IMG/VR virus record: IMGVR_UViG_2728369591_000008
Location: 1-16,498 of that record
DNA: 16,498 nucleotides
Direction: 5' to 3' (one strand)
Source of the DNA: a virus
Taxonomy: Duplodnaviria > Heunggongvirae > Uroviricota > Caudoviricetes
In this document: positions 9,104-9,634 of the stretch, piece by piece
Numbering within the stretch: position 1 is the stretch's first letter
How the letters are laid out: every line of letters begins with the position of its first letter
Notes under the pieces: model-generated
Seen by the model: the letters and a program-made list of their open reading frames with translations, nothing else
Database searches by the model: none
What the model was told of the DNA's origin: nothing
Made by a program: the position numbers and the translations under genes

Positions 9104-9634
9104 ATGACTAAGCTGACCATTAACAGAAAACCAAAAGGTATTTACGGCACGCCGCAGAAAACGACGCAGGCGGCGCAGCAGCAGGATAAAACCACATCGG
9201 CGCATAAAGTGATGCCCGGTAACCAGAAAGCGCAGCAGAAGCCCACAGGGGCAACACCGTGGCGGCATATGACCAAACGGCAGCGAAAAAACCGCAGACG
9301 CGTTAACCGCCTCACTGAGTTGTGGCCTGAATTATTCAGCCGGGAAGCACCGAAGCCGCTTAAGGTGGGGATATTCGACGACCTGATGCAGGATCTCGCC
9401 GTCAGGGGGCTGGCATTCGGGCCAGGGGCATTGCGTGCGACGCTGGCATCTTATGCGCAGTGTCCGCGCTATTACCGCGCCTTAATGGCTGGTGGGGTAC
9501 GCTACGACCTGAAATGCCAGCCGTGCGGCGAGGTGACACCACAGGAACAACAGGACGCAGAAACGCGGCTGGTTGCGCTGAATGAGAAACGCAAACGTCA
9601 GCGTCGGGCAGCAAAGGAGAAAACAGGCGCATGA
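9104..9634 (+). CDS. ProQ/FinO-domain RNA-binding protein (176 aa)
   Basis: Segment PLKVGIFDDLMQDL...LRATLASYAQCPRYYRALMAGGVRYDLKCQPCGEVT parallels the ProQ N-terminal FinO domain as I recall it (PLKIGIF...RxDLDGNPCGEL); basic Lys/Arg/Gln-rich N-terminus; start chosen at ATG 9104 because GGGG at 9093..9096 gives a better RBS than for ATG 9092. Confidence 0.75.
   Translation: MTKLTINRKPKGIYGTPQKTTQAAQQQDKTTSAHKVMPGNQKAQQKPTGATPWRHMTKRQRKNRRRVNRLTELWPELFSREAPKPLKVGIFDDLMQDLAVRGLAFGPGALRATLASYAQCPRYYRALMAGGVRYDLKCQPCGEVTPQEQQDAETRLVALNEKRKRQRRAAKEKTGA

Follow-up and report, generated by a model that had tools for sequence, protein, structure and literature searches.

What does a FinO-domain protein do when its gene lies beside the replication origin of a phage satellite, and which RNA might it bind? 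Proteins with this domain form the third major class of bacterial RNA chaperones, and those that have been studied are either plasmid-borne or encoded in the core chromosome. The window analyzed here is a stretch of 16,498 nucleotides of virus DNA (IMG/VR record IMGVR_UViG_2728369591_000008) that carries a gene of this kind at positions 9104 to 9634 on the plus strand.

A FinO-family protein beside an iteron origin

The gene codes for a genuine FinO-domain protein on which purifying selection acts. Its 176-amino-acid product passes the curated cut-off of Pfam family PF04352 over the whole domain, which served as the membership test (E 2.9e-22; 79.1 bits against a cut-off of 27; profile positions 5-108 of 109), and dN/dS over the domain is 0.13-0.28 when measured against diverged homologues. 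Sequence matches in the PDB are to the N-terminal domain of ProQ (5nb9, E 9e-11), FinO (2.4e-9), NMB1681 (2.7e-8), and RocC (2.6e-6). Because the PDB search gave FinO-family chains only, Rpp or another solved PICI protein was rejected as the identity of this protein.

An AlphaFold2 model made from an alignment of 26 homologues is confident from about residue 55 to 170 (pLDDT 88-95 over residues 61-170). The predicted structure has the helical core and beta hairpin of the FinO fold, with helices at residues 58-73, 90-101, 107-118, 121-129, and 146-175, and the hairpin at 132-143. The top 27 Foldseek matches in the PDB are exclusively FinO-domain structures (TM up to 0.84, rmsd about 2 Å). Codons 48-172 (9245-9619, +), whose Foldseek targets include FinO, RocC, NMB1681, Lpp1663, and the ProQ N-terminal domain, comprise a basic lead-in helix (TPWRHMTKRQRKNRRRVNRL), the FinO domain, and a long C-terminal basic helix, and the protein ends directly after the FinO-domain helix. 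The N-terminal tail formed by codons 1-47 (9104-9244, +) is rich in Gln, Thr, and Lys, begins with the conserved motif MTxLTINRKPKG, and is predicted to be disordered (pLDDT below 50 at residues 1-5 and 11-47). Lys and Arg outnumber Asp and Glu by 9 to 1 in residues 1-47 and by 18 to 2 in residues 1-75, and the predicted pI of the protein is 10.6. Thus, the HMM search and the fold match bear out the original prediction of a FinO-like RNA-binding domain, and the charge count agrees with its description of a highly basic N-terminal tail.

In the crystal structure of RocC with RNA, the pocket for the 3' nucleotide is formed by Gly52, Tyr87, and Arg97, and Arg75 is part of an N-cap motif (S70, K71, K73, and R75) that reads the hairpin backbone; FinO domains recognize terminator 3' ends, and their pocket reads the 2' and 3' hydroxyls of the terminal ribonucleotide (PMC9674577). 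Residues G89, R111, Y123, and R133 of the island protein are nearly invariant across the 26 homologues, and they align with G37, R58, Y70, and R80 of ProQ and with G52, R75, Y87, and R97 of RocC. Judged by this alignment, the residues of the 3'-end pocket are intact, and with such a pocket the island protein is expected to bind terminator hairpins with a 3' tail. The arginine of the N-cap is kept (R111), and throughout the clade the Ser and flanking Lys of RocC are replaced by G106-x-G108 (FGxGALR). Glycine is able to cap a helix.

By profile score, the protein is neither FinO nor ProQ proper. It falls below family level against both the NCBIfam FinO model (PRK13754; 61.1 bits against a cut-off of 136) and the ProQ model (PRK04950; 53.4 bits against an equivalog cut-off of 127). 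Like FinO of F-like plasmids, it has a basic N-terminal extension, a FinO domain, and a basic C-terminal helix; the FinO model aligns with residues 33-176, and the rmsd to the FinO structure 1dvo is 2.0 Å. However, its identity to FinO is about 28%, and it belongs to a phage satellite rather than to a conjugative plasmid. E. coli ProQ is the best PDB sequence match and its four residues listed above are conserved, whereas the linker and the Tudor-like C-terminal domain of chromosomal ProQ are missing and the island-borne gene occurs in only about 22% of genomes. The dN/dS values and the near-invariant pocket argue for a functional, distinct clade of the family. The domain call itself is routine and already present in RefSeq annotation; the protein itself is uncharacterized.

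The ATG at 9104 was chosen as the start codon, with GGGG located 7-10 nucleotides upstream; a longer ORF from the ATG at 9092 lacks a ribosome site. The NCBI pipeline (PGAP) applies the label 'ProQ/FINO family protein' to exactly this CDS in E. coli APEC E123, whose island is 100% identical. Upstream of the gene is an iteron-type origin (8745-9085), in which repeats of GGTAGACAG(TT) are found in both orientations around an AT-rich center. Two iteron sets around such a center are the layout shown for E. coli PICI origins (PMC6092414). With up to one mismatch to GGTAGACAG allowed, the window contains 12 matches, 10 of them within 8748-9083, where the expectation for the whole window is 1.86 and none of 200 shuffles reaches 12. 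Only 20 nucleotides separate the last iteron from the start codon of the FinO-like gene. On the other side, a gene for a PerC-family regulator (9631-9918, +; PF06069, E 3.8e-32) overlaps the FinO stop codon with its start (ATGA), and a weak terminator-like hairpin with a U-run, recognized by sequence, lies 3' of perC (9921-9946, +; MFE -9.2 kcal/mol, z -0.31). Both neighbors named in the original prediction, an origin and a PerC-like regulator, are therefore in place.

An optional cassette of chromosomal satellites

Judged from its gene content, the window carries a phage-satellite island of the Gram-negative PICI type, in agreement with the predicted satellite nature of the locus. A gene for a YgeR-like LysM/M23 lipoprotein and then a tRNA-Gly(CCC) (835-908) precede the island. 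These are followed by genes for a P4-type integrase (1033-2286), AlpA (3407-3604), and AntA (3682-4482), a divergent YlcI/YnfO gene (4753-5055, -), and a chain of seven closely packed ORFs (5264 to 8720, +) that overlap by 4-8 nucleotides or lie 4 nucleotides apart. PGAP annotation of locus L001 shows the same chain. Its first ORF (5264-5629, +) codes for 121 amino acids with an Icd-like C-terminal part and is the presumed antisense target discussed below. The penultimate ORF is a DUF4222 gene (6628-6918, +), and the last replication-operon gene before the origin codes for a D5/P4-type primase-helicase (6915-8720, +; D5_N, DUF5906, and Pox_D5 in Pfam; TIGR01613 primase_Cterm). A lipoprotein gene and small ORFs begin at 10053, beyond the FinO and PerC genes.

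The gene set of Gram-negative PICIs is present, namely int, alpA, pri-rep, and an iteron origin with an AT-rich center, and the island further resembles these elements in its size of about 14 kb, its fixed integration site, and its absence of lysis and tail genes. Homology of the flank places the right end near 15177, and tRNA-Gly(CCC) is the left neighbor; a search for att-site repeats found none. The backbone is collinear with that of the experimentally characterized prototype EcCICFT073, which along with related Gram-negative PICIs carries int, alpA, a divergent YlcI/YnfO gene, the Icd-like leader ORF, DUF4222, primase, an iteron origin, and PerC (PMC6092414). In EcCICFT073, however, PerC comes immediately after an SSB gene and FinO is absent, whereas the window island has neither SSB nor capsid genes.

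By blastn, the FinO-like gene is present in 1176 of 5426 complete E. coli genomes (about 22%). It occupies 1660 places, all of them chromosomal, with up to nine copies per genome. The 241 protein clusters come from Escherichia, Shigella, Salmonella, and Citrobacter, and their sole name is "ProQ/FINO family protein". Four PHROG families match the protein, each of unknown function. The closest relative in bona fide phages has 37.5% identity, and the closest in real plasmids about 43%. The clade is confined to chromosomal PICI/P4-type satellites of Enterobacteriaceae. In a survey from 2026, an Enterobacter cloacae PICI is recorded with a ProQ/FinO gene among its accessory genes (PMC13612085), and a review of the FinO family notes phage- and island-borne members in general terms only (PMC9977716). 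Our literature search found no functional study of the satellite clade, and the PICI papers it returned that discuss the neighboring PerC make no mention of FinO or ProQ.

To define the genomic context, 90 loci were gathered. IMG/VR supplied 80 of them, exact look-ups seven, and genome_contigs one, and the set was completed by one annotated E. coli region and the window itself. The scan of genome_contigs with a single protein gave the one locus, and viral contigs were then searched with an alignment. These loci collapse to 81 distinct local contexts, in all of which the FinO-like gene lies 3' of DUF4222 and a replicative primase/helicase of one of three types (D5, DUF927, or another). The gene directly follows the origin in 31 contexts and is located 40 nucleotides after an SSB gene in 36. 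PerC adjoins it in 55 of the 81 contexts (downstream in 51, upstream in four), and the other downstream neighbors are an unknown 138-amino-acid ORF (X138) or an 82-amino-acid ORF. When the window is compared with islands that have a different replication module, 83% nucleotide identity is seen over 9095-9589 only and the flanks are unrelated. Because similarity is bounded at these two positions, the CDS itself is the mosaic unit. The cassette is also the most G+C-rich stretch of the window (0.59). Satellites of the EcCICFT073 type thus carry the FinO-like gene as an optional cassette, placed right after the replication genes, be it the origin or SSB. One island (L092) carries a frameshifted copy, and degraded copies occur on plasmids. 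The idea that FinO marks satellites without capsid genes of their own was rejected, as the gene is found both with and without capsid modules.

A diverged subgroup (L084-L087; 60-64% identity) has the order SSB-PerC-FinO instead of SSB-FinO-PerC, so the pair survives rearrangement. The commonest type of FinO-bearing island (L003-L008; protein P0046) is indexed in 4005 blocks of the contig collection. At about 11560-18900 of these islands, three very large ORFs (about 840, 600-690, and 820-920 amino acids) follow FinO. One of them has an SLT domain in L007, and the trio recalls the 'DNA transfer'-like proteins reported for EcCIMP1.

A candidate antisense RNA and a possible role of the protein

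The original prediction paired the protein with a cis-encoded antisense RNA and pointed to positions 8700-9700 as the place to look for the transcript. This part of the proposal found no support, as folding, synonymous sites, and terminator-like sites revealed no antisense RNA within 8700-9700. An antisense RNA inside or beside the gene was rejected because minus-strand segments inside the gene are no more stable than shuffled sequences (z +0.45 and -0.85). Synonymous-site suppression across the gene is limited to mild dips, none of them marked, and the terminator-like sites at 9312-9296 and 9156-9143 are weak, with 5-bp stems inside constrained codons. Such sites are not enriched in the whole window (21 against 15.9 +/- 3.5 expected). 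The int-alpA RNA motif located between the integrase gene and the next gene (2331-2398, +; Rfam RF02996, 39.3 bits against a gathering score of 35.8) is an unlikely partner, since it follows the type of integrase and is absent from a FinO island with another integrase (L004). The same motif occurs in L003 (46.9 bits) and not in islands with another integrase type.

A concrete candidate is located 3.9 kb upstream of the FinO-like gene. The putative RNA at 5278-5187 (-) would be complementary to the SD sequence (5252-5255) and the ATG start codon (5264) of the first ORF of the replication operon. Its consensus structure, derived from an alignment of 32 distinct homologues, has three helices, of which two are nested 5' helices and the third is a long terminator hairpin followed by a U-rich tail. 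When read as the minus strand, 98.0% of the paired cells can form pairs (119 G-U), versus 82.1% for the plus strand (2 G-U), an asymmetry that together with the minus-strand pairing indicates that the constrained molecule is a minus-strand transcript. Nine pairs show compensatory change, none of 500 shuffles reaches the observed values, and slid controls do not come close. In the window, the minus strand folds with -34.1 kcal/mol (z -4.39) and the plus strand with -21.2 kcal/mol (z -2.11). A -10-like hexamer (TATGAT, TATGCT, TATAAT, or TATTAT) is found on the minus strand of every one of the 56 distinct sequences, within codons 3-7 of the first ORF (nucleotides +8 to +19), and the predicted antisense promoter consists of this -10 element only. 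These comparative data make a minus-strand cis-antisense RNA at this site well supported as a candidate.

We rejected a plus-strand RNA of the P4 CI/C4 type as an explanation for the leader hairpin, because neither C4 nor IsrK is matched in the window and the distribution of G-U pairs favors the minus strand. The only Rfam family that the candidate resembles is SymR (RF01809), likewise a cis-antisense RNA that starts just inside its target ORF and covers the start codon. With 35.7 bits, however, the match (5269-5197, -) stays below the gathering score of 61, which excludes the candidate from the family, and the target is not symE. There is no Rfam family above threshold and no paper on this RNA in the literature searched, and it appears to be undescribed.

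Of the FinO loci, 76 include enough upstream sequence for this comparison, and each of them has the candidate RNA. With a covariance model derived from this RNA, it was also recovered from elements without FinO, namely capsid-forming PICIs, a P4-like element, a plasmid remnant, and a lambdoid prophage. EcCICFT073 shares the RNA with the window island (86.9 bits; L216 8768-8861, -) and has no FinO. When elements were drawn from IMG/VR by the RNA pattern alone, FinO was found in 14 of 76 evaluable distinct elements (18%). Conversely, the RNA is present in about 80% of related elements without FinO, versus all FinO-bearing islands. The tie is one-directional, in that FinO islands have the RNA and elements with the RNA mostly lack FinO. 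Thus, the predicted pairing of a FinO protein with a cis-antisense RNA gains a specific candidate, but this RNA is not specific to FinO-bearing islands, and so the link between the two is one that we infer. The idea that FinO compensates for a poor antisense terminator was rejected, as the U content of the first 8 nucleotides of the tail is alike in FinO-plus and FinO-minus elements (4.4 and 4.65 U). The RNA was further seen in L090, L093, and L094. The capsid-forming PICI L093 carries two copies (7742-8132) and has a second regulatory region with IsrK and C4-type RNAs (58 and 75 bits), which combines two RNA-based control modules.

Precedents come from plasmids, whose FinO-domain proteins target a cis-antisense RNA at the leader of a gene that regulates replication or transfer, as with FinO/FinP-traJ, FopA/Inc-repZ, and PcnR (PMC9977716; PMC8053102; PMC8136791). 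For FopA with Inc RNA (IncI1 plasmid pCol1B9) and PcnR (IncI2), a replication gene is controlled via an antisense RNA on a translationally coupled leader ORF (PMC9977716; PMC8053102). By analogy, we tentatively favor a FinOP-like circuit as one possible role, in which the protein would help the 5278-5187 RNA repress the replication operon. The island would transcribe an antisense RNA of about 80-90 nucleotides (5278-5187, -) over the ribosome binding site and start codon of the first operon ORF, and the seven closely packed ORFs would connect the covered start codon to the primase. The FinO-like protein, made from the far end of the gene array, might bind the terminator hairpin and tail of the RNA and guard it against decay, and its basic tails might speed the pairing of the antisense RNA with the mRNA leader. 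As an outcome, island replication would be kept low before induction or limited afterwards. In islands without the cassette, such as EcCICFT073, the RNA alone or host ProQ might suffice, as in F-like plasmids with broken finO. FinP is present in F-like plasmids that have an inactive finO, and with host ProQ as a possible substitute, an optional protein and a universal RNA are no contradiction.

The RNA layout here, over the SD sequence and ATG of a leading ORF, is the arrangement of FinP/traJ and Inc/repY-repZ. As in FinO/FinP, the protein gene is at the distal end of an array headed by a two-stem-loop cis-antisense RNA over a ribosome site, and the RNA exists without the protein. In contrast to FinO/FinP, the presumed target is a replication operon and not traJ, and RNA binding is a prediction. 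FopA and PcnR are plasmid proteins, and real plasmids contain nothing nearer than about 43% identity to the island protein; the satellite replication proteins are primase-helicases and not RepZ/RepA. The domain, fold, pocket residues, and purifying selection all argue for the FinOP-like circuit, as do the fixed place of the gene after the replication module (81 contexts, three helicase/primase types) and its existence as a mosaic unit of its own. For the RNA, the strand-specific G-U pairs, covariation, stability, -10 hexamer, and terminator count in its favor, as does presence in 76 of 76 loci. Arguing against it, the RNA is independent of the protein (14 of 76; EcCICFT073 and P4-like and capsid-forming satellites have the RNA), its 3' tail is the same in FinO-plus and FinO-minus elements, and FinO tracks PerC and not RNA features. 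In addition, the RNA-contacting N-cap Ser and Lys of RocC are replaced by Gly-x-Gly, and the antisense promoter has a -10 element only.

If the protein does partner the antisense RNA, then regulation of Gram-negative PICIs, so far explained by AlpA alone, gains an RNA layer. A broader proposal, about which we are doubtful, is that enterobacterial satellites (PICIs, capsid-forming PICIs, and some P4-like elements) share an undescribed cis-antisense RNA that gates translation of the replication operon, and that about one fifth of them acquired a dedicated FinO-family chaperone. If true, satellites would have a 'fertility inhibition' system parallel to plasmid FinOP, and this system would set how tightly a satellite is silenced and how it responds to its helper. 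The value of following up this locus comes from the scale of the clade in E. coli and from the candidate partner RNA, and the window island and the naturally FinO-less EcCICFT073 offer a natural plus/minus comparison.

The main rival to the FinOP-like circuit, which we consider only a little less likely, is that the FinO-like protein and PerC are an accessory regulator pair, carried as a moron-like cassette and expressed while the island is integrated. The protein would then act in trans on host or helper-phage RNAs as a specialized or competing ProQ, and PerC would act on transcription. The cassette is indeed optional, G+C-rich (0.59), and bounded as a mosaic unit. Among the elements drawn by RNA pattern, PerC accompanies FinO in 9 of 14 versus 13 of 62 without it (odds ratio 6.8, Fisher p 0.0026), an association that is uncorrected for shared ancestry. 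The adjacency of the two genes is kept in the reversed order SSB-PerC-FinO of L084-L087. Moreover, PerC homologues of PICIs are able to alter LEE expression (PMC11773190; PMC6092414), and chromosomal ProQ and NMB1681 bind many RNAs (PMC9674577). However, no target can be named for such a pair, and where FinO proteins of mobile elements have been characterized, each acts on a single target or very few, located on its own or a co-resident element. Furthermore, the gene is always within the replication gene array and never in the distal accessory/defense region. Under this reading, the ProQ regulon of pathogenic E. coli would have a modifier that is itself mobile.

An improbable option is that the protein binds the 3'-end terminator of the (SSB)-FinO-PerC mRNA and stabilizes its own transcript, much as ProQ stabilizes many 3' UTRs. 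FinO domains do recognize terminator 3' ends (PMC9674577), and a hairpin with a U-run follows perC at 9921-9946, but this hairpin is weak (-9.2 kcal/mol, z -0.31). The downstream gene also varies between islands (PerC, X138, or the 82-amino-acid ORF), so no common 3' end travels with the FinO gene.

We know of no FinO-domain protein that acts on DNA, which speaks against another role that we judge quite improbable, namely that of a replication accessory factor that binds, together with SSB, structured single-stranded DNA or primer RNA at the origin. The position of the gene, 20 nucleotides from the last iteron in the window and 40 nucleotides after SSB in 36 other contexts, would suit such a factor. 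However, what the pocket recognizes is a terminal ribonucleotide, through its 2' and 3' hydroxyls (PMC9674577), and replication modules of these types function without FinO, as in EcCICFT073 (PMC6092414). Finally, the frameshifted copy in L092 and the degraded plasmid copies are what one might see for a passenger gene with no current function, but this is very improbable for a gene with dN/dS of 0.13-0.28 over the domain, a near-invariant pocket, and a position conserved in hundreds of genomes.

Other features of the island

After PerC, a 380-amino-acid predicted lipoprotein without a family match is encoded at 10053-11195 (+). It is conserved at 93-100% in many islands, including one in Citrobacter (L009). 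The 181-amino-acid protein encoded at 12379-12924 (+) has an N-terminal HTH that is weakly similar to small terminase and excisionase families (phrog_57, E 1.8e-6), and no solved relative was found for it. A role in redirecting packaging is conceivable.

The AT-rich distal end of the island carries genes for a DUF4747 protein (E 9.5e-98) and an overlapping 199-amino-acid membrane protein (13675-15167, +). Related islands have GapS1 or GAPS4 genes at this place, and the DUF4747 and membrane protein pair may be the cargo of a defense hotspot. PADLOC gave no match for the region 13675-15167. It also assigned no defense family to the FinO and PerC proteins. Of four further island proteins scanned, only the 181-amino-acid protein gave a match, a weak one to mad1 (E 0.0021, 16.3 bits).

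The divergent promoter region between YlcI/YnfO and the replication operon (5056-5190) contains repeated operator-like half-sites, TGTATATCAC and TGTATCTCACA. In related islands, a TTGACG or TTGACA -35 element lies between palindromes whose sequence differs from island to island, and this variation suggests that several repressor or activator specificities might exist. A strong terminator closes the short divergent operon (4495-4545, -; -19.2 kcal/mol, z -4.19). The 65-nucleotide block around this minus-strand terminator (4460-4524) retains 83% identity in islands with different neighboring genes (YlcI/YnfO versus DUF3950).
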